A DNA stretch of 64,000 nt from an uncultured Blastocatellia bacterium (GTDB taxonomy: Bacteria; Acidobacteriota; Blastocatellia; HR10): positions 966 through 64,965 of the forward strand of contig CALHAI010000018.1 in NCBI GenBank assembly GCA_937934295.1. The letters are read 5' to 3'. Shown in pieces: positions 6,891 to 57,021 of the stretch. The stretch's first letter is position 1. Every line of letters starts with the position of its first letter. The notes under the pieces are model-generated. The model made no database searches. It was not told where the DNA came from and saw only the letters and a program-made list of their open reading frames with translations. The position numbers and the translations under genes are program-made.

Positions 6891-8132
6891 ATGGCGATGA
6901 AATTCAAAGTGAGCGTCCTGGTCGTCTCGGTCGCCGTCGCCCTCTACGTGGTGATCGGCGGATTGCTGCCGCGCCGCGGCGTAATCGCCAGTTACAACGA
7001 TCCCTATTCCCAGTTGACGATCTTTCAGGAAGTCCTCACGCGCATCATCAACGATTACGTGGACGAACCCGATCTGGAAAAGGTACGCGTGGGCGCCTTG
7101 CGAGGATTAGCCGAGGGCTTGGATCCGTACAGCGCCTATTTGACGCCTGAGCAGGTCCGACGTTTGAACGGGGGGCGCGCGGAAGCGGGACTCGAGAGCG
7201 GCATCGTCCTCTCGAAGGTCGCCGGATACGCCTATGTGGTCTCCGTTCTGAAAGGATCTCCCGCCGAAATCGCCGGCCTTCGCCCCGGCGACGTCATCGA
7301 GTACATTGGGGCGCGCGCGACGCGCGATATGAGCCTTTACGAAGCCCGCGAGTTGCTGGTCGGGCCATCGGGGAAGGAGATCGAGCTCAAGGTCTTCCGG
7401 GAAGGACGATCGGAGACCTTCAAGTTCAAACTCGAGCCCTTCCCGCGTCCTAAGCCTGAGGCGAAGGTCCTGGAGCGAGGGCTGGGCTATTTGAAACTCG
7501 CGACGCTCGAAGAGGGGGAGTCGGTTCGCATTCGTGAAGAGTTGGAGCGTCTGATCGCCCAAGGGGTGAATCAGTTGATCGTGGACGTGCGCGGTGTCGC
7601 GACGGGGACGTTGGCCGAGGCGATCACCGTCGCGAACTATTTCATCGGCTCAGGTACGCTGGCTAAGACGATCGGGCGAGAGGGGCGAGTCCTGCAGACC
7701 TTCACGGCGGATCCCCAGCGGCAGCTCTATCGCGGCGAATTGGTCGTGCTGATTGATCGGAGCACTGCCGGAGTGGCCGAGATCATCGCCGCCGCCATCT
7801 TAGAGAACAAACGCGGCGAATTGGTGGGCGAGCGGACCTTCGGGGCCGGGGGAGAGCAGAAGCTCTTCCCGATGCGAGATGGCGGTGGGCTCTATATCAC
7901 CGTTGTGAAGTACGCGATGCCTTCGGGCAGACCGATTATGGGCAGCACTTCGGCGACCAGCGGCATCGTCCCAACGGTAGAAGTGCCGCGGCCGGATCGC
8001 GGACCAACACCGGAGGAGCTCGAAGAGCGAGAGGAGCTGCCTCCGGAAGAGCCCTTGATCCATCCGCCCACTCCGGCTCCTTCCGAGGATCTCCCGCTGA
8101 AGAGGGCCATCGAGATCCTGCGAAAGAAGTGA
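6891..8132 (+). CDS. ctpA: Carboxyl-terminal processing protease (S41 family, PDZ domain)
   Basis: 413 aa. Has an N-terminal TM anchor/signal, a PDZ region (GIVLSKVAGYAYVVSVLKGSPAEIAGLRPGDVI) and the S41 catalytic region (LIDRSTAGVAEIIAAAI...GERTFGAG). Confidence 0.85.
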   Translation: MAMKFKVSVLVVSVAVALYVVIGGLLPRRGVIASYNDPYSQLTIFQEVLTRIINDYVDEPDLEKVRVGALRGLAEGLDPYSAYLTPEQVRRLNGGRAEAGLESGIVLSKVAGYAYVVSVLKGSPAEIAGLRPGDVIEYIGARATRDMSLYEARELLVGPSGKEIELKVFREGRSETFKFKLEPFPRPKPEAKVLERGLGYLKLATLEEGESVRIREELERLIAQGVNQLIVDVRGVATGTLAEAITVANYFIGSGTLAKTIGREGRVLQTFTADPQRQLYRGELVVLIDRSTAGVAEIIAAAILENKRGELVGERTFGAGGEQKLFPMRDGGGLYITVVKYAMPSGRPIMGSTSATSGIVPTVEVPRPDRGPTPEELEEREELPPEEPLIHPPTPAPSEDLPLKRAIEILRKK

Positions 8133-25271: not shown

Positions 25272-27239
<1,968 letters not shown>

Positions 27240-27394
27240 CTAGGGCGTAGCGTCGTCCTGCGCCCTTGGCTCGAAGCTCTTGCTTCTCTTTGAGTTGCCT
27301 ATGGCCTGAACGCTCGTCGCTTTGGCCCGGAATTTGCTTTCAAGAATCATGTCAAGAGGTCTTTTTGCCCAAGATATGGTGTGGGAGGAGAGCT

Positions 27395-29020
27395 ATGGGA
27401 GGAAGAATCGTGCCAGAGAGAAGCGGGCTGACCTCTTGCGGGGCGCTTGTGGCTCCGCTGCCAAAGGGGTTGCCGAAGCTCGTCGAGTCCATCTGTCCGG
27501 AATGTTGTCGCGTCATCCCCGCGCGCATCTTCGAGCACGAGGGACGGGTGATGATGGAGAAGCGGTGTTCAGAGCATGGTGAATTTCGAGACCTCGTCTG
27601 GTCCGATGTTCGACTCTACTTGAAAGCCGAGCAATGGGCCTTTGAAGAGAGGCGCGGGGTCTCCAACCCGGCTGTGCCGGATGCCGTGCTCTGTCCGCAG
27701 GATTGTGGCCTCTGTCAGATGCATTTGAGCCACACGGGCTTGGCGAACATTGACCTGACGAATCGTTGCAATTTGACCTGTCCCGTCTGCTTCGCCAATG
27801 CGAACGTGGCGGGCTATGTCTACGAGCCTTCGCTCGAACAGGTCTATCGGATGCTGCGGCAATTGCGGGAGATGCGCCCGGTCGCGGCTCGCGTCATTCA
27901 ATTCTCGGGCGGGGAGCCAACGATCTATCCCCATTTCATCGAAGCGGTGCGGATGGCACGGGACCTGGGGTTCTCGCACATTCAGGTCGCCACAAACGGC
28001 CTCCGATTCGCCACTGAGCCCGGCTTCGCCGAGAGATGCGCCGAGGCCGGATTACATACGCTCTATCTTCAGTTCGATGGCTTGAGTGATGAGACCTATC
28101 GCAAGACGCGCGGGCAACCGCTCTGGGAGCTGAAGCAACGGGCTGTCGAAGCGGCCCGTCGGGCGGGACTGAAGATCGTCTTCGTCCCGACGGTCGCGCG
28201 TGGGGTGAACGATCACGAAGTCGGTCGCATCCTGCAGTTCGCCATCGAGAACATTGACGTCACGTCGGGCATCACGTATCAGCCGGTGACGTTCACCGGG
28301 CGCATCACCCAGAAGAAGCGGGAGCAAATGCGATATACACTCACCGACTTGGTGAAGGATCTGGCCGAACAGACCGGGATCGTGGACACGTATCACGATT
28401 GGTATCCCACGCCTTGTACCGTCTCATTCTCGGAGTTCTTGAGCGCCTTGCAGGGGGAAGAGACGATCGCCCTCACCTGCCATCCGCATTGTTCACTGGC
28501 GACTTATCTCTTTGTGGACGCGCGGACGAAGACGGCGATCCCCGTCACACGCTTTGTGGACGTGGAGGGGATGTTGCGAGCGTTTCGCGAGTGGGCGCCG
28601 CGGATCCGTCGGCTTCCTTCCAAGAAGCTCTCGGCACTGATGGCGTATATCGTCCTGCGGCGGTTCTTCCGACAGGAGGCGGCGCCACCGGGATTGACCT
28701 ACGTGAAGTTCCTCCGAACGCTCGAGGGGCTCGTGGACAAGCGCATCGGACGCGGGGAGAACGAGGAGCGGCTCACCTATCGAACGCTCATGGTCGCCGG
28801 GATGCATTTCATGGATGCCTACAACTACCAGCTCGATCGCGTCATGCGCTGCGTCATCCACTATTCGGCTCCCGATGGGCGAATCTATCCCTTCTGCACG
28901 TACAACTCGGGGATCACATTCCGCGAGAGGATCGAGCAGAGCTTCTCGATCCCCTTGGAGGCGTATCTCACGGCTTCCGGGAAGGAGCCCGTGGCGGCGA
29001 GGACCGTCTTGAAGGTGTGA
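27395..29020 (+). CDS. Radical SAM enzyme with N-terminal zinc ribbon, of the MJ0619 / tetraether-lipid-synthase (Tes) / Mss-like family
   Basis: Start ATG 27395 with a strong RBS GGGAGGAG. The N-terminus has CPECC...IPARIFEHEGRVMMEKRCSEHGEF (Zn ribbon) and a second C-x2-C...C pair (CPQDCGLC). The canonical CX3CX2C radical-SAM motif is NIDLTNRCNLTCPVCFANAN, followed by the glycine-rich SAM site FSGGEPT. An extension of about 250 aa follows, with no SPASM cysteines. The family assignment is from memory of family signatures, not from a database search. Confidence 0.6.
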   Translation: MGGRIVPERSGLTSCGALVAPLPKGLPKLVESICPECCRVIPARIFEHEGRVMMEKRCSEHGEFRDLVWSDVRLYLKAEQWAFEERRGVSNPAVPDAVLCPQDCGLCQMHLSHTGLANIDLTNRCNLTCPVCFANANVAGYVYEPSLEQVYRMLRQLREMRPVAARVIQFSGGEPTIYPHFIEAVRMARDLGFSHIQVATNGLRFATEPGFAERCAEAGLHTLYLQFDGLSDETYRKTRGQPLWELKQRAVEAARRAGLKIVFVPTVARGVNDHEVGRILQFAIENIDVTSGITYQPVTFTGRITQKKREQMRYTLTDLVKDLAEQTGIVDTYHDWYPTPCTVSFSEFLSALQGEETIALTCHPHCSLATYLFVDARTKTAIPVTRFVDVEGMLRAFREWAPRIRRLPSKKLSALMAYIVLRRFFRQEAAPPGLTYVKFLRTLEGLVDKRIGRGENEERLTYRTLMVAGMHFMDAYNYQLDRVMRCVIHYSAPDGRIYPFCTYNSGITFRERIEQSFSIPLEAYLTASGKEPVAARTVLKV

Positions 29021-29081
29021 CGCTTGCTTCCGACCTTCGCGCTGGGGCAGAATATAACTCTATCTTCTGGAGGAAGGGAGT

Positions 29082-29564
29082 ATGGAGCTGAAGGTCGTTC
29101 CCTTGGAGATCCCGTCCGGATGTAACATCATCGTCGGGCATGCGCATTTCATCAAGACGGTTGAAGACCTCTATGAAGTGATGGCGACCAGCTCGCCACA
29201 TGTCAAGTTCGGGCTGGCGTTCTGTGAGGCCTCTGGACCCTGTCTGATTCGGTTTGAAGGGAATGACGCGGAGCTGACGGAAGTGGCGGTCCGGAACGCG
29301 CGCCAGTTGAGTGCCGGGCACGCATTCGTGATCCTCTTGCGGGAGGGATATCCGATCAACGTTCTCAATGCGATCAAAGCGTGTCAGGAGGTGTGTACGA
29401 TCCACTGCGCGACGGCCAATCCTGTTCAGGTCATTCTCGTGGAGACCGAACAAGGACGAGGGATTCTCGGTGTCGTAGATGGATTCGCATCCAAGGGGGT
29501 TGAGGGGGAGGAAGAGAAGGCGAAGCGGAAGGAACTGCTGCGAGCGATCAGGTATAAGCTCTAG
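29082..29564 (+). CDS. Small conserved protein. Tentatively from the archaeal-type DUF355 family, but 'adenosine-specific kinase'-like is also possible. Function unknown.
   Basis: 160 aa. It lies 61 nt downstream of the radical SAM gene with an RBS GGAGG. Has the motif GHAHFIKTVEDLYEV and a Lys/Glu-rich C-terminal tail. The family call is a recollection and is not verified. Confidence 0.45.
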   Translation: MELKVVPLEIPSGCNIIVGHAHFIKTVEDLYEVMATSSPHVKFGLAFCEASGPCLIRFEGNDAELTEVAVRNARQLSAGHAFVILLREGYPINVLNAIKACQEVCTIHCATANPVQVILVETEQGRGILGVVDGFASKGVEGEEEKAKRKELLRAIRYKL

Positions 29565-29625
29565 CAAACTCTGTCCCCTCACTGGAGAAAGGGGGACTTA
29601 CACGCGTAAGTCATGGGAGATCTCG

Positions 29626-30100
29626 CTTAACAGAGCCGTTCGGATGGGAGAAATGCAGTTCCCATTAGGGAAAACGACGGCCCACGAATCTCGATTTTTC
29701 AAGCTTCTTGTGTCGCCTCAGATAGGCCTCGATCTACGGGGCCAGACGCTGTTTCCGCTCCAGCCATGTCCTGGGCGGGTCCTGCAAGACGGCATAGGTC
29801 AAGAAGACGATGGCCACCCAGTTGACAATCCCCAGGGGCGTTCGGGGATGGAAGGCCTCCAGCCCCAGCTCCTTCTTGGCCACCCGGTGGAAGACTTCGA
29901 CCGTCCACCTCAGATTGTAGCGGGCCTCGACCCGGGTCGAGGGCATCCAGGTCGTCGAAAACAAGTAGAAGCGTCGCCATTCGACTCGACCTCCGCAGAG
30001 GCGATACTCCCACCATGTGGGCACGACCCCTATCCGCCGGCGCCAGGCTCGGAGTTCGACCCACTGGGGCCGCTCCAGACAACCGATGGGACGACCGTCC
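29626..30100 (-). pseudogene. Truncated IS4-like DDE transposase remnant with one terminal repeat copy
   Basis: The minus-strand ORF ending at 29734 encodes only a transposase C-terminus (...YNLRWTVEVFHRVAKKELGLEAFHPRTPLGIVNWVAIVFLTYAVL), i.e. the IS4-family YREK/E region. No N-terminal DDE region is present. Repeat copy A (CTTAACAGAGCCGTTCGGATGGGAGAAATGCA, 29626-29663) sits just outside the remnant. Confidence 0.55.
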
Positions 30101-30269
30101 GCCAGTTCCGGTGCGAGACCCCCACGACATGCCAGCCCCCCTCCCGACAGGCAGCGACACCAGCCCCCCAGGTCAGACCTCCTCCAGAAGGAATACAGCT
30201 TCACCCTCCACCCCCTCAGCCATCCCGGACTCCCCAGCCTCTGCTCCCGAATAGGCTGCTCTGTGGTGA

Positions 30270-31010
30270 TTAAGTGAGGAGGAGGAAAAATGGATGCATT
30301 ATACTGTGGCGCAGGGATGATGGTTGTAGCCTCTGGCCACAGTGGTCGGTTGGAAAGCCCGCAGCAAGATACCTTGGGTGTTTTCCCTCTGGGGTGCCCT
30401 TGCATGGATAGTGGGCATAACACTAAAAGCAGTAGCTGCACTCCCAACTAGGCCTATAATCCACGGCGTTCGAGAGTTCTGCCCAGATAAATGACAGGAA
30501 TCTTTGAATGCGGAGTTACCCTTGGATTTGCGTCGATTCGGAAAATACGCGCGGCTCGCTGGAAAGAGGCGGTGGGGTTCGGTTTAGGCTTTGGCGCCAT
30601 AGAAGCTTTTTGGGTCGGGCTAATCGCTTTTGTCCTGGTCCTGTTGATCCTCTTAGTTCCAGACAAGCTTCCACCGGAGCTGTCTCAGTCGGTCATCCCA
30701 AGGGAGCAGTCATTCTTAGTAATCCCGGCGCCAATCATCGAGAGAATTACAACTATTTTCATACACGCATTCTCATGTTTGCTTATCGTCTATGCAGTGC
30801 AGTTCAGGGCGTAGAGGTGGTTCTGGGTTTCGTTTTTCTATAAGACTGCGGTAGACGCAGTAGCTGGTTTCTTTCAGATCACATACGGTGTTGAGAATCT
30901 CACGACACTTGAGATATGGGTCATGGAGCTCATTTTCCTTCCTTTTGGCATGATTGGTATTTGGGGGTTATGGGTGTTTCAACGCAAATGGCAAAACGCG
31001 GCTTGACCCC
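30270..31010. other. AT-rich islet (clearly lower GC than its surroundings) next to the IS remnant; probably foreign or degraded DNA
   Basis: The compositional shift is visible by eye. It holds only short ORFs, e.g. 30491..30814 +, a hydrophobic 107-aa fragment with a GFG..EAFW motif. Confidence 0.4.
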
Positions 31011-31164
31011 TCGTTCCGGCCGACCGTTCTCTCGGCGGCTCCGTCGGTGCAGTCGCAGCGGTTGAGATCGGTGATGCAAGCAGGGTGTGAAAATGGTAGA
31101 GCGTCTCGGGTTCTAAGTGCCCGGCCTCAGAGACATGGCGCAGGAACGGGCTATCGGGTTCCCA

Positions 31165-31605
31165 CTAAGAGGCTTGCACCACGGGCTCGACGACGAGTTT
31201 GTTGCCCTCGACGCCGGTGACCCGCACCATCGTGCCCGGGGCGATCTCGACGGTCGATGCCGCCACGGCCCGCCAGGTCTCTCCCTCGACTTTCACGAGA
31301 CCCCCCAGGGGACCCCGGACCGTTTCAAGGACCCAGCCCGTCTGACCGATGAGGCCCATGACTCCAAATTCCCGACTCTGGAGCTCCTGCCGGTGCAGGA
31401 GCCGACGGGAAACGGCCAGAGCGGCGACGGCGACGCCCAGGGCACTCCCGACTTGAAGCCACAGGGGACCCCCCAGGAAGGCGACGACCCCGCCCCCCAA
31501 GCACCCCACGCCCAGGCAGAGCAGGACGAAATTCGTCGGGAGGGCCAACTCAAGAAGGATACAAATCACGCCGACGACCATCCAGATGACAGTGAAGCTG
31601 ACCAT
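31165..31605 (-). CDS. NfeD-family membrane protein (short form: TM segments plus a C-terminal OB-fold). It is an orphan; no SPFH/stomatin partner lies adjacent.
   Basis: N-terminal TM helices, then the NfeD beta-barrel signature GLIGQTGWVLETVRGPLGGLVKVEGETWRAVAA...GTMVRVTGVEGNKLVVEP. Start ATG 31605, or 31647. Confidence 0.6.
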   Translation of the reverse strand: MVSFTVIWMVVGVICILLELALPTNFVLLCLGVGCLGGGVVAFLGGPLWLQVGSALGVAVAALAVSRRLLHRQELQSREFGVMGLIGQTGWVLETVRGPLGGLVKVEGETWRAVAASTVEIAPGTMVRVTGVEGNKLVVEPVVQAS

Positions 31606-31650
31606 GCCAGACACCCAACGCCGGATAGGATATGTATCGAAGATCAAGGG

Positions 31651-31689
31651 CGAACAGCGAATGGCGAATAGGGCCCTATTCCCTGTTCG
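31651..31689. promoter_or_regulatory. Palindromic element CGAACAG...AATAGGGCCCTATT...CTGTTCG immediately upstream of nfeD
   Basis: A perfect 14-bp palindrome AATAGGGCCCTATT (31667-31680) is nested in 7-bp arms. Additional GCGAA(T/C)GGCGAATAG inverted copies lie at 31654-31668 and 31701-31715. Confidence 0.35.
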
Positions 31690-31767
31690 CTGTGCGCCAC
31701 TCGCTATTCGCCGTTCGCTTTTCTCGAAGGGTCGGCAAAGCCGAGGGCATCCTGATTCTCAGGAGCT

Positions 31768-31998
31768 GAACGGCTCTGTTAGCATAGCCGTTCGGTTCGT
31801 GAGAATGCATCGGGACGGTCTTTCCCACCGCCCGAAAGGCACGGTTTTTCAAAGATACGGGATACGAGATGCGGGGTCCTCAGCCACCTGCCCATCTGCC
31901 GACTGCCGATCTGCGGGATGCTTGAAAAATCGTGCTCCCGGAAGGGTCTTTTTTCCGCTTCCCATCGCACTTTTCACTTCCCGAACAGCTCTGTTAAG
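31768..31998. mobile_element. MITE-like element bounded by inverted copies of the repeat CTTAACAGAGCYGTTCGG...GAGAAATGCA
   Basis: Copy B is at 31768-31815. It is a hairpin junction: GAACGGCTCTGTTAG, then CATAGCCGTTCGGTTCGTGAGAATGCA. Copy C is at 31955-31998 in reverse orientation (CCGAACAGCTCTGTTAAG). Both match copy A (29626-29663) at 17/18 in the core. Confidence 0.45.
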
Positions 31999-32116
31999 TC
32001 TTGAGCGCTGGGATAGTGCGGGGTCAGATTGGGAGTTCGAGAAAACCAACGTCCGATAATGTTTGATCCGAAATGTCGTCATTAATGTCGTCATTCCCAT
32101 GGGCGCTTGCCGAGGT

Positions 32117-32620
32117 CTACTCTTTGGGTTGGGGAGGGATAGGTTGAAAGCGGGGGAAGTGTTGGGCGGCCAGTTGGCTGATCATGGCAGCGCCGCGAGC
32201 GAGATAGGGTGAGGTGAAGCTCTCTCGCAAGAGATCACGACGCCATGGGAAGACGCTCAGAGCGAGATAGACGACCGAGCACAAAGCCCATCCGCGCAGG
32301 AAGCCGAAGAGACCGCCCATACCGTGATCGAGCCAGCTCAGGTGAGCCCGACGTAAGCCCGAATGAAGCGCGCGTGCGAGCAGGAGGCCGATGAAGAGCA
32401 CCAGCAGGTACGTACTGAGAAAAGCCAGCAAGTGCGCCATCTCCTCCGATTCGACGAGAGGACGGATGAACGGGGCAGCGCCGCGGTAGGAAGAGCTGGC
32501 GAGGAAAAACCCGGCGATGGCGGCGGCTGTCGTGATGACGCTTCGCGCGAATCCGCGTGAGAGCCCTGTGAGTGTCGAGAGGCCGATCACGAAGAGGACG
32601 AGGGCATCGAAGGTCGTCAT
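32117..32620 (-). CDS. cvpA: CvpA-family membrane protein (colicin V production protein homolog)
   Basis: Start ATG 32620 (MTTFDALVLFVIGLSTLTGLSRGFARS...). Four TM helices. It lies immediately downstream of purC, with 0 nt between them. Confidence 0.7.
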   Translation of the reverse strand: MTTFDALVLFVIGLSTLTGLSRGFARSVITTAAAIAGFFLASSSYRGAAPFIRPLVESEEMAHLLAFLSTYLLVLFIGLLLARALHSGLRRAHLSWLDHGMGGLFGFLRGWALCSVVYLALSVFPWRRDLLRESFTSPYLARGAAMISQLAAQHFPRFQPIPPQPKE

Positions 32621-33519
32621 GGTATCGTTTCCTTCCCCGTCAGAAGACGATAAGCCATGAGATACCGAGTGGCCGTTTGTTCGATAATGGATTTGGGGAG
32701 GCGAGGAGCGGATGAAGATCTGTCCCATCCGATAGAGTCCAGGTAGTCGCGGAGGAACTGCTTGTCAAAGGAGGGTGGCGGACGTCCGGGCGCATACTGA
32801 TCGGCAGCCCAGAAGCGCGAAGAATCTGGCGTCAGCGCCTCATCGATCCACAAAAGCGTCTGATCTCGCCATCCGAATTCGAACTTCGTATCGGCGAGGA
32901 TGAGGCCTCGAGCGAAGGCGTACTCGGCTGCCCGTGAATAGAGAGCGAGGCTCAGGTCCTTGAGCCGACGAGTTAACTCGGTCCCGAGGCGATTGGCCAT
33001 CTCGGCCTCGGAGATGTTGATGTCATGTCCTTCGGTGGCCTTGATCGCGGGGGTAAAGATCGGTTCCGGGAGTCTCGCCGCTTCGACCAGGCCCGGGGGC
33101 AAGCGGAGACCGCCGACGGTTCCGAACTGTTGGTACTCTCTCCAGGCCGATCCGGCCAGATAACCGCGCACGACGCATTCGATGGGGATTGGGCGCGCGC
33201 GATGCACGAGCATGCTGCGAGAGCGAAGCGCCGTGCGTTCGGTCTCCGTGAGTCCGTCGAGCGCGTGGACATCGGTCGTGATCAAGTGATGGGGGGCGAT
33301 GGGCTCCAGGAATCGGAACCAAAATGCCGAGAGCTGAGTGAGAACGGCTCCTTTACCAGGGATACCGTCCGGCAAGACGACATCGAAGGCTGAGATGCGA
33401 TCGGTCGTGACGATCAGCAGACGATCGTCACCGATGGTGTAGATATCGCGGACCTTTCCTCGCCGGAGGAGGGGATGAGCCGTGAGATGCGTTTCCAAGA
33501 CGACAGGTGGCGAGCTCAT
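32617..33519 (-). CDS. purC: Phosphoribosylaminoimidazole-succinocarboxamide synthase (SAICAR synthetase)
   Basis: 300 aa. LLRRGKVRDIYTIGDDRLLIVTTDRISAFDVVLPDGIPGKG is the hallmark PurC N-terminus. Its start overlaps the stop of the upstream tlpA-like gene (ATGA). Confidence 0.9.
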   Translation of the reverse strand: MSSPPVVLETHLTAHPLLRRGKVRDIYTIGDDRLLIVTTDRISAFDVVLPDGIPGKGAVLTQLSAFWFRFLEPIAPHHLITTDVHALDGLTETERTALRSRSMLVHRARPIPIECVVRGYLAGSAWREYQQFGTVGGLRLPPGLVEAARLPEPIFTPAIKATEGHDINISEAEMANRLGTELTRRLKDLSLALYSRAAEYAFARGLILADTKFEFGWRDQTLLWIDEALTPDSSRFWAADQYAPGRPPPSFDKQFLRDYLDSIGWDRSSSAPRLPKSIIEQTATRYLMAYRLLTGKETIP

Positions 33520-34004
33520 GGCTTGAGCAGCGCATCGAGCATTTTCGTCAACTCGTTCACGTAGCTCTCCGGATCCGCGAATCCCACATGCGGAGCCCCG
33601 ATGGGGTCGCCGTTGCGATCCAGGAGGAGAAGGGCTGGGACGCCCTCGGTCTTGAACCCTTGCAGGATGCGCGCTTCGGGATCGCGGAGTACGGGCAGAC
33701 GCACGCCCAGGCGGGAGACGAACTGTCGGAGTTGGTCATTAGAGATCTCGGGATCATCGATGCTGATCCAGAAGAAAGCGACCGGGCGTCCCGTGTATTG
33801 ATCGGCGACCTTTTGCAGGACGGGCAACTCCTCTCGGCAGGGCGGGCACCAGGTGGCGCCGAAGGAGAGGACGACGACTTGTCCACGGTAGTGCGTCAGG
33901 TCAACCATCCGACCATCGAGTGCAGGGAGCGAGAAGGATCGTTTCTGTGCGGGCGTCCCGTAAAGGGCGAATGCGACAAGGGCGAGCGCGAAGACTTTTT
34001 TCAT
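33516..34004 (-). CDS. TlpA/ResA-like periplasmic thiol:disulfide oxidoreductase (thioredoxin fold)
   Basis: Start ATG 34004 (MKKVFALALVAFAL..., a signal peptide). CxxC active site SFGATWCPPCREELP. Confidence 0.75.
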   Translation of the reverse strand: MKKVFALALVAFALYGTPAQKRSFSLPALDGRMVDLTHYRGQVVVLSFGATWCPPCREELPVLQKVADQYTGRPVAFFWISIDDPEISNDQLRQFVSRLGVRLPVLRDPEARILQGFKTEGVPALLLLDRNGDPIGAPHVGFADPESYVNELTKMLDALLKP

Positions 34005-34063
34005 AGGCACCCCCGAACGGTGTACTTTAGCACAGCAGGCATCGCCCGAAAAGGGAGTGGGCG

Positions 34064-36871
34064 TCATCGGAGCGTTCTCCCTTCGTTCCGGAGATAGGCG
34101 GCGAGGAACTGTCCCGTGTAGGACTCCGGGACGCGCATGATCGCTTCCGGAGGGCCTTGGGCGACGACATATCCGCCGCGCTCTCCGCCTTCGGGGCCGA
34201 GATCGATGATCCAGTCGGCGCATTTGATGACATCGGGATTGTGCTCGATGATGATGACTGATCCACCGGCGGCGATCAAGCGGCGGAAGGCGGCGATCAA
34301 CTTTTGAATGTCATCGAAGTGCAGGCCGGTCGTCGGTTCATCGAAGAGATAGAGCGTGCGGGCGCTGGTCTCTTTGGCCAGGTGGGCGGCGAGCTTGAGG
34401 CGTTGGGCTTCGCCTCCGGAGAGCGTCGTCGCCGATTGTCCCAGGCGGATGTATCCGAGGCCGATCTGATCGAGGACCTCCAACCGCCGCGTGATCTTCG
34501 ACACATCGGCGAAGAAGTGGAGGGCTTCGCGGACGGTCATATTGAGGACCTCGTGGATGGTCTTCCCTCGGTAGCGGATCTCCAGCAGTGCGGGTTGGAA
34601 GCGCATCCCCTGGCAGTGCTCACAGACGAGTTCGACATCGGCCAGAAATTGCATCTGGATGGTCACGACGCCGTTGCCCTCGCAGGCTTCGCAGCGGCCG
34701 CCGGGCACGTTGAAGGAGAAGTGTGCCGGGGTGAGGCCGCGCGCTTGTGCCTCGCGCGTGGAGGCGAAGAGTTCGCGGATGGCATCGAAGACCTTCAGGT
34801 ACGTTGCCGGGTTCGAACGAGGTGTGCGCCCGATGGGGGATTGATCCACGAGAATGATCTCGTCGAGCCATTCCCCACCTTCGATCTTGCGAACGGGGCC
34901 GACAGGTTGATTCCACTCTCCGCGTTGCTTCTTGAGATTGGCGTAGAGGACGTCGTAGACGAGGGTGGACTTGCCGGAGCCGGAGACGCCCGTGATGCAG
35001 ACCATCAGCTCCAGGGGGATGTCCACGTCAATGTTCTTGAGATTATGGGCGCGCGCACCGCGAATCGCCAGGCAGCGCCCGGTCGGGGAGAGGCGTTGCC
35101 TGGGGGTGGGGATGCTCAGCTCGCCGCGCAGGTATCTCCCGGTCAGCGAAGAGGGGGCGCGTTGCAACTCTTCGGGCGTCCCTTGGAAGACGACCTCGCC
35201 ACCGTGTTCGCCGGCGCCGGGCCCCAGATCGATGACGTGATCGGCGGCCAGGATCATCTCGCGATCGTGCTCGACCACAAGCACCGTATTCCCGATGTCG
35301 CGCAGATGCTTGAGCAAGCGGATGAGGCGCTGCGTATCGCGAGGATGCAGGCCGATGCTCGGCTCATCCAGGACGTAGAGGGTGCCGACCAGAGAAGCGC
35401 CGAGATTCGTCGCCAGTTGAATGCGCTGGGCCTCGCCGCCGGAGAGGGTGAAGGCATGCCGATCGAGCGTCACATAATCGAGACCGACGTCCACGAGGAA
35501 GGCGAGGCGCTGGCGGATCTCCTGAAGCAACCGGCCGGCGATCGCCTCTTCCTGAGGTGTGAGGGAGAGCGCGGCGAAGAAAGCGGCGCATTCGCCAATG
35601 CTCATGGCACAGATTTCGGGGAGCGTCTTCCCGCCGACGCGTACGGCCAAGGCTTCGGGTCTCAAGCGCGCGCCCTTGCAGGAGGGGCAGGTCGTATAGC
35701 CGCGATATTTGCTCAGGAAGACGCGCACGTGCAGCTTGTATTTCTTCGTCTCCAACCATTCGAAGAAGCCACGGATACCGGGGAACTCACCCTTCCCCTG
35801 GATGATCCAGCGTTGGTGCTCTCGGGAGAGTTGAGCGAAGGGGACGTCGGTGGGGATCCTCATGCGGCGGCAGAAGGTGAGCAACTCCTCCTGCGCCCAC
35901 TCGAACTGGGGCTTCGTCCAGGGTTCGATGGCCCCCTCTTGCAGCGAGCGCTCGCGATCCGGGATGACTAGGTCCAGATCGAGCCCGATAAGATTGCCGA
36001 AACCCTGACAGTTGGGGCAGGCACCATGGGCGCTGTTGAAGCTGAAGAGCTGCGGTTCGGGCTCAATGTAACGGGTTTGGCATTGCGGGCAGGTCAGCTG
36101 CGCCGTGAACGTGAGCTTCTGCGGAGGATCGCTGAGGAGCACGATTTCGGCGACGCCGTCCCCTTCGCGGTAGCAGAGCTCCAGCGAATCGATCAAGCGC
36201 GACCGGATATCGGGACGGAGGACGAGGCGATCTACGAGGACGCTCATCTCGTCGAGGGCGGGAGGGGTTTGGAGATCGCCGATCTCCACGACCTGGCCTC
36301 GCACGTAGAGGCGTGTGAATCCGCGCTGCTGCAGGGTGAGCAGCAGCGCCTTCGGCGAGAGCTCGCTCCGGCGGGAGCGTCCGTTCTCGGCTTTGCGCGC
36401 GAGCGGGAAGAGGACGTAGAAGCGGAGCCCTTCAGGTAATTGCAAGAGGCGATCGGCGATCGTCTCCGGGGTCTGGCGGATGACTTCGCTGTGGCAGGTC
36501 AGGCAGTAGACACGGCCGATTCGGGCAAAGAGCAGCCGCAGATAGTCATAGATTTCCGTCTGCGTGGCGACGGTGGAGCGCGGGTTGCGGCTGAGGGGTT
36601 TTTGCTGGATGGCGATCGTCGGGCAAAGGCCCGTGATCTCGTCCACATCCGGTTTCCTCATGCGCTCGAGGAACTGACGGGCATAGGCGGAGAGGGACTC
36701 CACATACCGGCGCTGGCCTTCGGCGTAGATCGTGTCGAAGGCGAGGCTCGATTTCCCTGAGCCGGAGACCCCGGTGATGACGGTCAGACTCCCGTGTGGG
36801 ATCTCGCAGGTGATGTTCTTGAGATTGTGTACGCGCGCGCCGCGCACGATGAATGCCGTCTGCTCACTCAT
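34064..36871 (-). CDS. uvrA: Excinuclease ABC subunit A
   Basis: Start ATG 36871 ([20 protein letters not shown]...). Two ABC ATPase modules ([10 protein letters not shown], twice) and zinc fingers. Full length, about 935 aa. Confidence 0.95.
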
Positions 36872-54516: not shown

Positions 54517-56933
<2,417 letters not shown>

Positions 56934-57021
56934 GGACGTGTGGTCATGTCATAAGATTTCTTATCAGACCCAAAGCCAGAGACCTGTGAGTTCCCCTCCC
57001 CACAGCTCACAAAGAACGTCT

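Follow-up and report, generated by a model that had tools for sequence, protein, structure and literature searches.

Several described systems offer points of comparison for the locus presented here. The IS5 group of the IS5 family comprises insertion sequences (IS) of about 1.2 kb, which encode a transposase of about 330 aa and generate a 4-bp duplication at YTAR sites. Bacterial MITEs are internal deletions of autonomous IS, and compound (composite) transposons carry other genes between inverted IS-derived ends. In the IS701 family the target duplication is 4 bp, the length ranges from 1400 to 1550 bp, the termini feature the signature ---YACT-Y--YR, and the YREK tyrosine is present in only 4 of 27 elements (De Palmenaer, Siguier & Mahillon 2008, PMC2266710). 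Target duplications in the IS4 family, instead, are about 7-13 bp long (PMC2266710, Table 1).

The DNA analysed, hereafter the window, is a 64-kb stretch from an uncultured Blastocatellia bacterium. Positions 29631-31993 (about 2.4 kb), in the spacer between an adenosine-specific kinase gene and cvpA, two housekeeping genes of a thermophilic, probably Acidobacteriota-like host, very probably represent a decayed mobile-element islet whose edges, like one junction inside it, are formed by ends of a single IS family. This supports the interpretation given by a first-pass annotation made from the sequence, namely a degraded mobile-element islet. It is an ordinary decayed IS/MITE islet, and no new mechanism is implied. 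In six related contigs, whose kinase is 87-93% identical, the kinase gene directly adjoins cvpA; the segment of about 29631-31993, absent as a whole from these relatives, is therefore an insertion, and should be annotated as foreign. The native motif CAACGTCCGATAATG follows the kinase stop codon after 4-6 nt in the relatives L015-L017 and after about 60-150 nt in L014, L027 and L028. Comparison with the empty site of the 93% relatives is limited to length and two motifs, the spacers being too diverged for a base-exact match. The view that this is the only clearly accessory segment of the window is also supported on composition, as the islet is its only strong tetranucleotide outlier (z up to 5.0, with the next region at 2.4). 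The GC minimum of the window falls in the islet as well, and the AT-rich stretch reported earlier was recovered, with 44.5-53.5% GC vs 61.6% for the window. The features of the region are as follows.

29627-29630, no strand: TTAA at the left islet edge, putative 4-bp target-site duplication with its partner at 31994-31997 (read from the sequence)
29631-29715, plus: end A, right-type, adjoining the transposase C-terminus (nhmmer 60.2 bits, E 4e-17)
29692-30200, minus: transposase remnant (tblastn, three-frame translation, Pfam DDE_Tnp_1 E 1.2e-7, alignment)
30290-31006, plus: pseudogene of yhfC (intramembrane metalloprotease), corresponding to the AT-rich stretch (Pfam YhfC)
31165-31605, minus: nfeD, intact orphan gene, 146 aa in public assemblies (Pfam NfeD E 9.7e-16)
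31649-31723, no strand: GCGAAYR heptamer repeats forming a palindromic block from nfeD towards end D, partly continuing the D-type end
31702-31778, minus: end D, right-type, inverted relative to A (nhmmer 47.8 bits, E 3e-13)
31779-31782, no strand: TTAG common to the abutting ends D and B, the middle TTAA-like 4-mer (read from the sequence)
31783-31993, no strand: MITE of 211 bp with ends B and C (nhmmer, homology to the L019 MITE)
31783-31860, plus: end B, left-type, inner module at 31843-31853 (nhmmer 55.8 bits)
31993-31907, reverse: end C, right-type, inner module at 31921-31931 (nhmmer 60.6 bits)
31994-31997, no strand: TTAA at the right islet edge (read from the sequence)
32048-32062, plus: native spacer motif CAACGTCCGATAATG, where native DNA resumes

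The repeat on which the first-pass annotation was built is real. Its 18-nt core occurs four times in 64 kb at no more than three mismatches, always in the islet region, against 0.06 occurrences expected, and none of 100 shuffles reached four copies. Its description had to be revised: four ends (A, D, B and C) were found in place of three copies, each spans about 80-90 nt in place of about 35 bp, and the supposed hairpin junction consists of two separate ends, D (minus, terminus at 31778) and B (plus, terminus at 31783), with TTAG at 31779-31782 between them. The ends are bipartite terminal inverted repeats, made of a 13-nt terminus (CAGAGCYGTTCRG), a spacer of 47-49 nt and an inner module (GATTTTTCAAG). 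In end A these parts are the terminus CAGAGCCGTTCGG at 29631-29643, a 49-nt spacer and the inner module GATTTTTCAAG at 29693-29703, a layout matching positions 1515-1423 of contig L008, downstream of the transposase P0001. The claim that the repeat marks IS ends is confirmed, P0001 being flanked on L008 by the same bipartite sequence with the same 49-nt spacing. End D has the terminus CAGAGCCGTTCAG (read from 31778 down to 31766), a spacer homologous to the reverse end of contig L019 (2581-2489) and to the left end of L007 (301-375), and GCGAAYR heptamers in place of the inner module; in L007 the sequence GCGAACGGCGAATAGC (360-375) follows the homologous end. The idea that D was once the left end of the IS to which A belongs was rejected: D is right-type, with a spacer homologous to those of the second L019 end and of C, and left-type ends resemble B. 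Searched with a profile of the ends, the window yields exactly four copies, L019 four, L007 three and L030 one partial copy. An alternative reading of the inner module (GGCACG-N4-TTCA) as a sigma-54 promoter was rejected by eye, the GG and GC dinucleotides not being conserved among the copies.

In the window the ends have the 4-bp flanks TTAA/TTAG/TTAA, and in L019 these are TTAA/TTCA/TTCA. As regards target-site duplications, which the first-pass annotation proposed to define through synteny with related genomes, the TTAA flanks of the islet are a putative duplication, from which the middle 4-mer, TTAG, differs. A 4-bp duplication is backed by the TTCA direct repeats around the L019 MITE2 and by L024 and L025, where identical IS ends part just beyond CAG. 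TTAA is palindromic and, for the window alone, could equally belong to the inverted repeat.

Ends B and C form a genuine MITE, as had been suggested, with transposase-less homologous copies in L019/L020 and L007, its size being 211 bp and not the roughly 230 bp reported. Along its length it shares homology with the MITE of L019 (2324-2577), and it showed no homology to P0001 or its relatives. Its ends match the profile, which was built with the IS ends of L008. As in known bacterial MITEs, it is non-coding, pairs a left-type with a right-type parental IS end, has putative 4-bp repeat flanks and folds as one long hairpin (z = -3.4), and multiple intergenic copies are found in other genomes. Other contigs carry 2-4 ends each. 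Its flanks in the window, TTAG/TTAA, agree in three of four positions, and those of the homologous L019 MITE2 are a perfect TTCA/TTCA. Two traits set it apart from the known cases: neighbouring copies are often joined tip-to-tip with the 4-bp duplication in common, and copy-specific tandem arrays of 7-8 nt lie just inside the inner module (31854-31914, the centre of the MITE). The tip-4bp-tip architecture of D and B recurs in L019 as GCTCTG-TTCA-TAGAGCC.

The transposase of the islet is dead: its N-terminal half and the left end are missing, and it carries a frameshift and an in-frame stop. The C-terminal DDE fragment recognised earlier was confirmed by Pfam (DDE_Tnp_1) and extends over about 140-170 residues, more than the 110 aa first estimated. 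Residues 191-329 of P0001 align by tblastn with positions 30105-29692 at 58% identity, and the homology reaches into end A, passing the in-frame TAG at 29734-29736. A frameshifted, weak but collinear piece (E 0.31) covers P0001 residues from about 158/165 to 190 at about 30200-30099, and in it the second catalytic Asp is apparently Gly. The N-terminal 160 residues or so, with the first Asp, are lacking, and P0001 residues 1-157 had no tblastn match in the window. Neither a second transposase copy (tblastn, window) nor an intact IS copy (about 74 kb available of this genome) was found. P0001 (338 aa) is the only close full-length homologue, 58% identical, and its element occupies about 309-1510 of L008 (about 1.2 kb), with termini CAGARCNGTTCRG.

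Two passenger genes lie inside the islet. The AT-rich stretch is a decayed yhfC, supported by the profile over 30491-31006 and interrupted by an in-frame stop at 30812-30814; the open reading frame alone covers positions 70-185 of the 222 in Pfam YhfC (44 bits), reading through the stop covers 69-220 of 222 (59 bits), and the upstream part, in another frame, gave no profile match. In public assemblies, the gene calls 'transposase' (70 aa) and 'YhfC' (107 aa) are pseudogene fragments. The nfeD gene, by contrast, is intact, GC-rich (66-70%) and of foreign origin: it is 82-88% identical to copies in rsmA-nfeD-Band_7 operons of the 'bacterium HR11' lineage, with DNA homology confined to 31608-31184 and pairwise dN/dS of 0.19-0.30. 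Its description as an orphan was upheld, no Band_7 gene adjoining it in the window, while one does so in L029 and L030. The TTG-started frame reaches 31647, and an exact-protein look-up of this 160-aa version gave no match because public gene calls use the 146-aa start. The gene belongs to the inserted DNA, its capture having separated it from the Band_7 partner, and is not a member of the neighbouring radical-SAM/kinase locus. It may be expressed today; a promoter and terminator scan gave nothing above the shuffled expectation.

Read from left to right, the islet consists of a right IS end with only the C-terminal half of its transposase (truncation, frameshift, stop), the low-GC yhfC pseudogene, the high-GC intact nfeD derived from an rsmA-nfeD-Band_7 operon of an HR11-like lineage, the outward-facing second right-type end D, and a complete 211-bp MITE (B-C) of the same IS, abutting D across four shared bp. 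The parent family is about 1.2 kb long, encodes one DDE (PF01609) transposase of about 335 aa and appears to duplicate 4 bp at TTAA-like sites. The DNA would have arrived by transposition of units bounded by IS ends into TTAA sites, whether in a single step as the compound unit A..C or in two, A..D being joined by the MITE at the duplicated TTAA, with transposase acting in trans, and the islet would now be inert, save for a possibly expressed nfeD. As in compound transposons, inverted IS-derived ends (A at 29631, plus; C at 31993, minus) bracket nfeD and the truncated yhfC, with identical TTAA on both sides, a likeness of limited weight as TTAA is palindromic and the preferred target. Unlike them, the islet has no functional transposase in cis, both of its outer ends are right-type, and the A..C unit was not seen at a second site in the nfeD-homologue contigs. 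Neither nfeD nor yhfC was found between such IS ends in other contigs, including those with nfeD homologues, and movement of the islet as a unit is therefore hypothetical. The locus nonetheless offers a small, well-delimited case of IS/MITE-associated gene capture between hot-spring lineages.

The main competitor of this account is stepwise assembly in situ, in which MITE and IS inserted independently in the spacer, DNA with nfeD and yhfC came later via homologous recombination between resident and incoming IS/MITE copies, and IS-mediated deletions followed. We consider it a serious candidate, somewhat short of an even chance. The pieces of the islet have three different GC contents and are all broken at their edges, on the nfeD-donor-type contig L030 about 2.5 kb separate nfeD from a partial end of this family, the tandem MITEs of L019 show that copies pile up at the same site, and the middle TTAG is unlike the outer TTAA. 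However, at least three or four independent events would be needed in a spacer of about 130 nt, and the outermost ends, A and C, are the best-matching pair (17/18 at the tip), with identical TTAA flanks.

It is very improbable, and largely refuted, that the repeats are a host repetitive or regulatory element (REP-like or structured RNA) merely situated near a transposase remnant. The units do contain hairpins and heptamer arrays, the MITE folds well and all repeat copies are intergenic; an undescribed RNA is formally possible, as an Rfam search of the region matched no known family and returned a sub-threshold miRNA match only. Against this, the only intact homologous IS has the bipartite sequence at either end, where it overlaps the transposase C-terminus, and copies occur in inverted pairs with 4-bp direct flanks. 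Moreover, a second copy of the L008-type IS on L025 has the same end with a different flank, and the identical IS ends of L024 and L025 diverge exactly at the terminus, immediately outside CAG. Of the two checks on a mobile origin named in the first-pass annotation, a transposase match and further copies of the repeat, the former is clear; as for the latter, the exact tip was found in only one of 185,579 representative genomes (L007), and diverged copies in several metagenome contigs. The exact 18-mer scan of these genomes, a set not including the window's own, gave seven single matches against a rough chance expectation of about 35; in a profile search one, the Acidobacteriota MAG L007, proved genuine, with three ends, and the other six were attributed to chance. 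A scan of metagenomes for the bipartite pattern returned nine loci, and five of them (L018, L021, L022, L023 and L026) were set aside as chance, with nothing conserved outside the constrained positions and nhmmer E >= 0.38 or no match.

That a metagenome assembler mis-joined contigs of different organisms at shared MITE/IS repeats is scarcely credible, for all that the source is a metagenome contig in which GC differs among the pieces and the junctions coincide with repeats: the arrangement recurs in three further assemblies (one from ENA and two from Logan, separate runs) at 99.92-99.98% identity with few SNPs, collinearity with relatives extends on both flanks over more than 14 kb, and the repeats, of only about 85 nt, differ among themselves by divergence.

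With regard to family placement, the IS4-like designation first given to the transposase proved only roughly right, the nearest models and nearest annotated relatives being of the IS701 family, all distant and below curated cut-offs. The best NCBIfam matches are IS701 models, at 47-48 bits vs cut-offs of 150-250. Among annotated plasmid proteins the closest come from Deinococcus, where they are labelled 'IS701 family transposase', with identity of only 23-27%. A single-ORF DDE transposase of the IS4-related superfamily and a target duplication of exactly 4 bp are shared with IS701, the duplication resting here on few copies (the TTCA/TTCA direct flanks of L019 MITE2 and the window flanks), and the full-length L008 IS having no clean one (ATAG vs GTAA). 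In contrast to IS701, the element is about 1.2 kb long against 1400-1550 bp and has termini (CAGAGCCGTTCGG) without the ---YACT-Y--YR signature. Its Y-(2)-R-(3)-E-(6)-K motif is complete, with a tyrosine that 4 of 27 IS701 members have as well. With the IS4 family (IS10, IS50, IS231 and relatives) it shares the PF01609 DDE domain, the complete YREK, the lack of a programmed frameshift and ends starting with CA, whereas duplications there are 7-13 bp against 4 bp here, and the best NCBIfam IS4 model reaches 45 bits vs a cut-off of 250. Size, transposase length and the 4-bp duplication at a TTAA/TTAG-like target recall the IS5 group; membership was rejected, since at E<=0.1 P0001 and the window fragment match no IS5-family NCBIfam model, in contrast to P0001's matches with IS701 and IS4 models, and since the termini bear no relation to the GG ends known from IS5.

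The clade combines a complete YREK motif, which is IS4-like, with a 4-bp target duplication, which is IS701-like. It is conceivable, though on balance unlikely, that all of the following holds jointly: the P0001-type element founds an undescribed IS group within the IS4/IS701 superfamily (complete YREK, 4-bp TTAA-like duplication, about 1.2 kb, bipartite ends with a fixed 49-nt spacer), apparently restricted to Acidobacteriota-like bacteria of hot springs; its MITEs, with copy-specific heptamer/octamer arrays, have a preference for tip-to-tip insertion at the target that a resident copy has already duplicated; and A..C is a compound element, mobilisable in trans, by which nfeD passed between distinct lineages. 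The clade is very rare, with four cluster representatives at E<=1e-10 among 1.84 billion, and its ends, target duplication and MITE derivative, as defined here, could be added to IS catalogues. In the alignment, the DDE and YREK columns are conserved across the clade; the YREK motif reads YNLRWTVEVFHRVAK in the window and YAHRWQIEVFHRVAK in P0001, and P0001, P0122, P0123 and the window fragment all have its tyrosine.

The islet under study (29631-31993), between the adenosine-specific kinase gene and cvpA, is shown by composition and synteny to be foreign DNA, an insertion. GC content falls to 44.5-53.5% over ~30300-31000 against 61.6% for the whole window, and in tetranucleotide usage nothing else in the 64 kb stands out as strongly as the islet (z up to 5.0; next region 2.4). 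In the contigs of six relatives, whose adenosine kinases are 87-93% identical, gene order is common over at least 14 kb and the kinase gene leads directly to cvpA across a gap of 150-235 bp (6/6), with no transposase, yhfC or nfeD between the two. Homology to the six ends at ~29571 and returns at cvpA. The first-pass annotation had singled out this segment as accessory, a claim borne out by both the compositional profile and the synteny. The relatives' kinase-cvpA spacers, otherwise highly divergent, all contain the conserved non-coding motif CACGTCYGATAAY, 4-6 nt past the kinase stop in L015-L017 and further downstream in L014, L027 and L028; in the window it lies at 32048-32062, right of end C, moved 2.4 kb from the kinase gene by the islet. 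Without 29631-31997 the window spacer is similar in length to those of the 93% relatives, spacers being too diverged for base-level proof.

Several features were recorded in the native flanks. A stem-loop at 29573-29597 (GTCCCCT-N10-AGGGGGAC), directly after the kinase stop, may be the terminator of the kinase gene, kept left of the insertion; a consensus terminator scan is silent on it because it has no T-run. The native spacer also holds, shortly ahead of the cvpA stop codon, a perfect 12-nt direct repeat (AATGTCGTCATT, two copies, 32072-32095). At 27266-29564 a radical-SAM protein with an HMPTM-type N-terminal zinc ribbon (PF23545) is encoded beside the adenosine-specific kinase (PF04008); the pair is conserved in all six relatives, native and outside the islet.

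The repeat found in the islet is the end of a DDE insertion sequence (IS). Its core, CTTAACAGAGCYGTTCGG, matches exactly at 29626-29643 (+) and 31981-31998 (-) and, with three mismatches, at 31778-31795 (+) and 31766-31783 (-); these 4 matches compare with 0.06 expected in the window, and 0/100 shuffles reach four. Alignment of the copies gives, instead of the ~35 bp first described, a bipartite unit of 80-90 nt, formed by a tip, a 49-nt spacer (47 in copy B) and GATTTTTCAAG. A profile built from ten ends likewise puts the number of copies in the window at four, one more than had been reported:

Ends of the IS family in the window
29627-29715, plus strand, end A, right type
31781-31702, minus strand, end D, right type
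31779-31860, plus strand, end B, left type
31997-31907, minus strand, end C, right type

Elsewhere the profile finds four copies on L019, three on L007 (an Acidobacteriota MAG) and one partial copy at the contig edge of L030 (5-30), ~2.5 kb from the nfeD of that contig. The spacers distinguish the two types: right (A, C, D, L008R and L019 end 2), which in the IS adjoins the transposase C-terminus, and left (B, L019 ends 1 and 3, and two L007 ends). The claim that the repeat marks IS ends is upheld by metagenome contig L008, where the bipartite sequence flanks P0001, an intact relative of the window's transposase: after the gene stand CTTGAAAAATCGTG, a 49-nt spacer and CTGAACGGTTCTG, before it a diverged inverted copy, CAGAGCAGTTCAG, with the inner module GAATTTACAAC, together bounding an element of ~1.2 kb. 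The L008 end recurs on L025, from the same metagenome, where it is identical up to CAG and differs directly outside it (TTTAA/CAG vs CTTAC/CAG), so the terminus is CAGARC, preceded by a TTAN target. Downstream of the P0001 IS, L008 also carries a DDE_5-like ORF (IS701-type N-terminal domain, weak match) and an rve_3 integrase fragment (1606-2389), which makes this contig an IS graveyard.

Tip-to-tip contact of two elements across a single shared 4-mer is seen both in the window, TTAA-[A ... D]-TTAG-[B ... C]-TTAA, and on L019, TTAA-[MITE1]-TTCA-[MITE2]-TTCA, as expected if a new copy enters the duplicated target beside an older one. The non-palindromic TTCA/TTCA pair shows the 4 bp to be a direct duplication lying outside the inverted repeat, with the caveat for the 4-bp rule that the full-length IS in L008 has no clean duplication (ATAG vs GTAA). 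Each MITE is composed of one left-type and one right-type end. The B-C element, previously called MITE-like, is homologous to L019 MITE1 over its length and thus a MITE, though of 211 bp rather than ~230; it folds as one long hairpin (z = -3.4; 0/200 shuffles fold as well). Directly inside the inner module of the MITE ends stand 7-8-nt tandem arrays (GCGAAYR, GATACGG, CTGCCGAT, GCGTGACG and others), whose unit changes from copy to copy:

Tandem arrays of 7-8 nt
Window: 31650-31723, 31854-31875, 31888-31914
L019: 2655-2687
L007: 6017-6039, 2061-2084, 2649-2682, 4248-4293, 256-288
L029 (a contig with an rsmA-nfeD-Band_7 operon): 7703-7753
L008: 1-60

Comparable arrays also occur, with no recognisable IS ends, in intergenic DNA of related contigs; slippage, or extra transposase or host-factor sites, are candidate origins. 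The only other such array in the window outside the islet, of 8-9 nt (GGACGTGTG, ~3 copies), is at 56917-56943.

The window's transposase is dead. As the first-pass annotation had it, the minus-strand ORF ending at 29734 keeps only the C-terminus of a DDE transposase, matching Pfam DDE_Tnp_1 at profile positions 127-198 of 200. Among 5.8 billion proteins, a word-indexed search returned a single homolog, P0001 (338 aa, 58% identity), whose residues 191-329 align to 30105-29692 by tblastn against the window; an in-frame TAG (29734-29736) lies inside this alignment, and homology continues past it into end A, just as intact P0001 runs into its own IS end. A frameshifted collinear piece matches residues 165-190 weakly (E 0.31) and by eye reaches ~residue 158, the second catalytic Asp (VDGGL) reading SGGGL there. 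With P0001 as query, tblastn found no match to residues 1-157 anywhere in the 64-kb window and no second transposase copy. In the clade alignment the DDE triad (FDTT, VDGG, RWxIE) is present and the Y-(2)-R-(3)-E-(6)-K motif is complete; of these the window keeps the last block only.

De Palmenaer et al. (2008, PMC2266710, Table 1 and text) describe IS4 members as having YREK complete and duplications of 7-13 bp, and IS701 members as duplicating exactly 4 bp, usually lacking the YREK tyrosine (present in 4/27), and measuring 1400-1550 bp with termini ---YACT-Y--YR. The window's family is like IS4 in its complete YREK and differs from it in the 4-bp duplication, which it shares with IS701; from the latter it differs in a length of ~1.2 kb and the termini CAGAGCCGTTCGG, and from most IS701 members in the complete YREK. 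The earlier label "IS4-like" fits the motif but neither the duplication nor the NCBIfam ranking, where IS701 models come first (47-48 bits vs cut-offs of 150-250), IS4 models next, and no IS5 model matches. On plasmids, the closest annotated relatives are proteins of Deinococcus labelled "IS701 family transposase" (23-27% identity). The clade is rare: of 1.84 billion cluster representatives searched exhaustively with phmmer, only 85 match at E<=1e-3 and only 4 at E<=1e-10, the window's own 70-aa gene call being among the four. On these comparisons the best description is that of a rare and divergent lineage of the IS4 superfamily, IS701-like, though by curated criteria a confirmed member of neither IS4 nor IS701.

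The pieces of the islet are of mosaic origin, with a GC content of 62-68% in the transposase remnant, 45-53% in yhfC' and 66-70% in nfeD. The AT-rich stretch encodes a fragment of the YhfC intramembrane metalloprotease (profile positions 70-185 of 222), and when an in-frame stop at 30812-30814 is read through, the match grows to 69-220 and its score from 44 to 59 bits; a profile search of this stretch did not recover the first 68 positions. With its match so interrupted and shortened, yhfC is a pseudogene. The nfeD gene, at 31165-31605, is intact and encodes 146 aa. The homologs closest to it (82-88% identity, "bacterium HR11" included) are all members of rsmA-nfeD-Band_7 operons, and the DNA homology (81-84%) is limited to coding sequence, 31608-31184. 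The description of nfeD as an orphan is apt, no Band_7 partner lying beside it, yet no decay is visible in pairwise dN/dS (window vs homologs 0.19-0.30; homologs among themselves 0.14-0.21). These homologies show that nfeD was captured from an operon of another lineage.

The islet DNA would have arrived as units bounded by IS ends that transposed into a TTAA site, the transposase presumably being supplied in trans, either as a single compound unit A..C or as A..D plus the MITE entering the duplicated TTAA. Alternatively, it may have been built up in situ through independent insertions, followed by recombination-mediated capture via the homology of shared MITE copies, a route in keeping with the family end near nfeD on the donor-type contig L030; given that end, the family is common to the putative donor and recipient lineages. 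The whole amounts to a decayed IS/MITE islet of an ordinary kind that holds captured passenger DNA, in agreement with the mobile-element reading first proposed. It is mildly unusual only in that its transposase is rare and mixes family features, that MITEs stack tip to tip, and that the 7-8-nt arrays inside the MITE ends differ between copies.

A metagenome population is the source of the window. Among public contigs ENA ERZ6864471 (73.9 kb, 99.92% identical) is nearest, and the window's arrangement recurs in two Logan assemblies. Compared over 26000-36000, the public contigs L011, L012 and L013 of this population are 99.92-99.98% identical to the window, none being fully so, and 4/8, 6/7 and 1/2 of the respective differences fall in the islet (29912, 30305, 30565, 31152, 31164 and 31209), a clustering which, in small numbers, suggests relaxed constraint.
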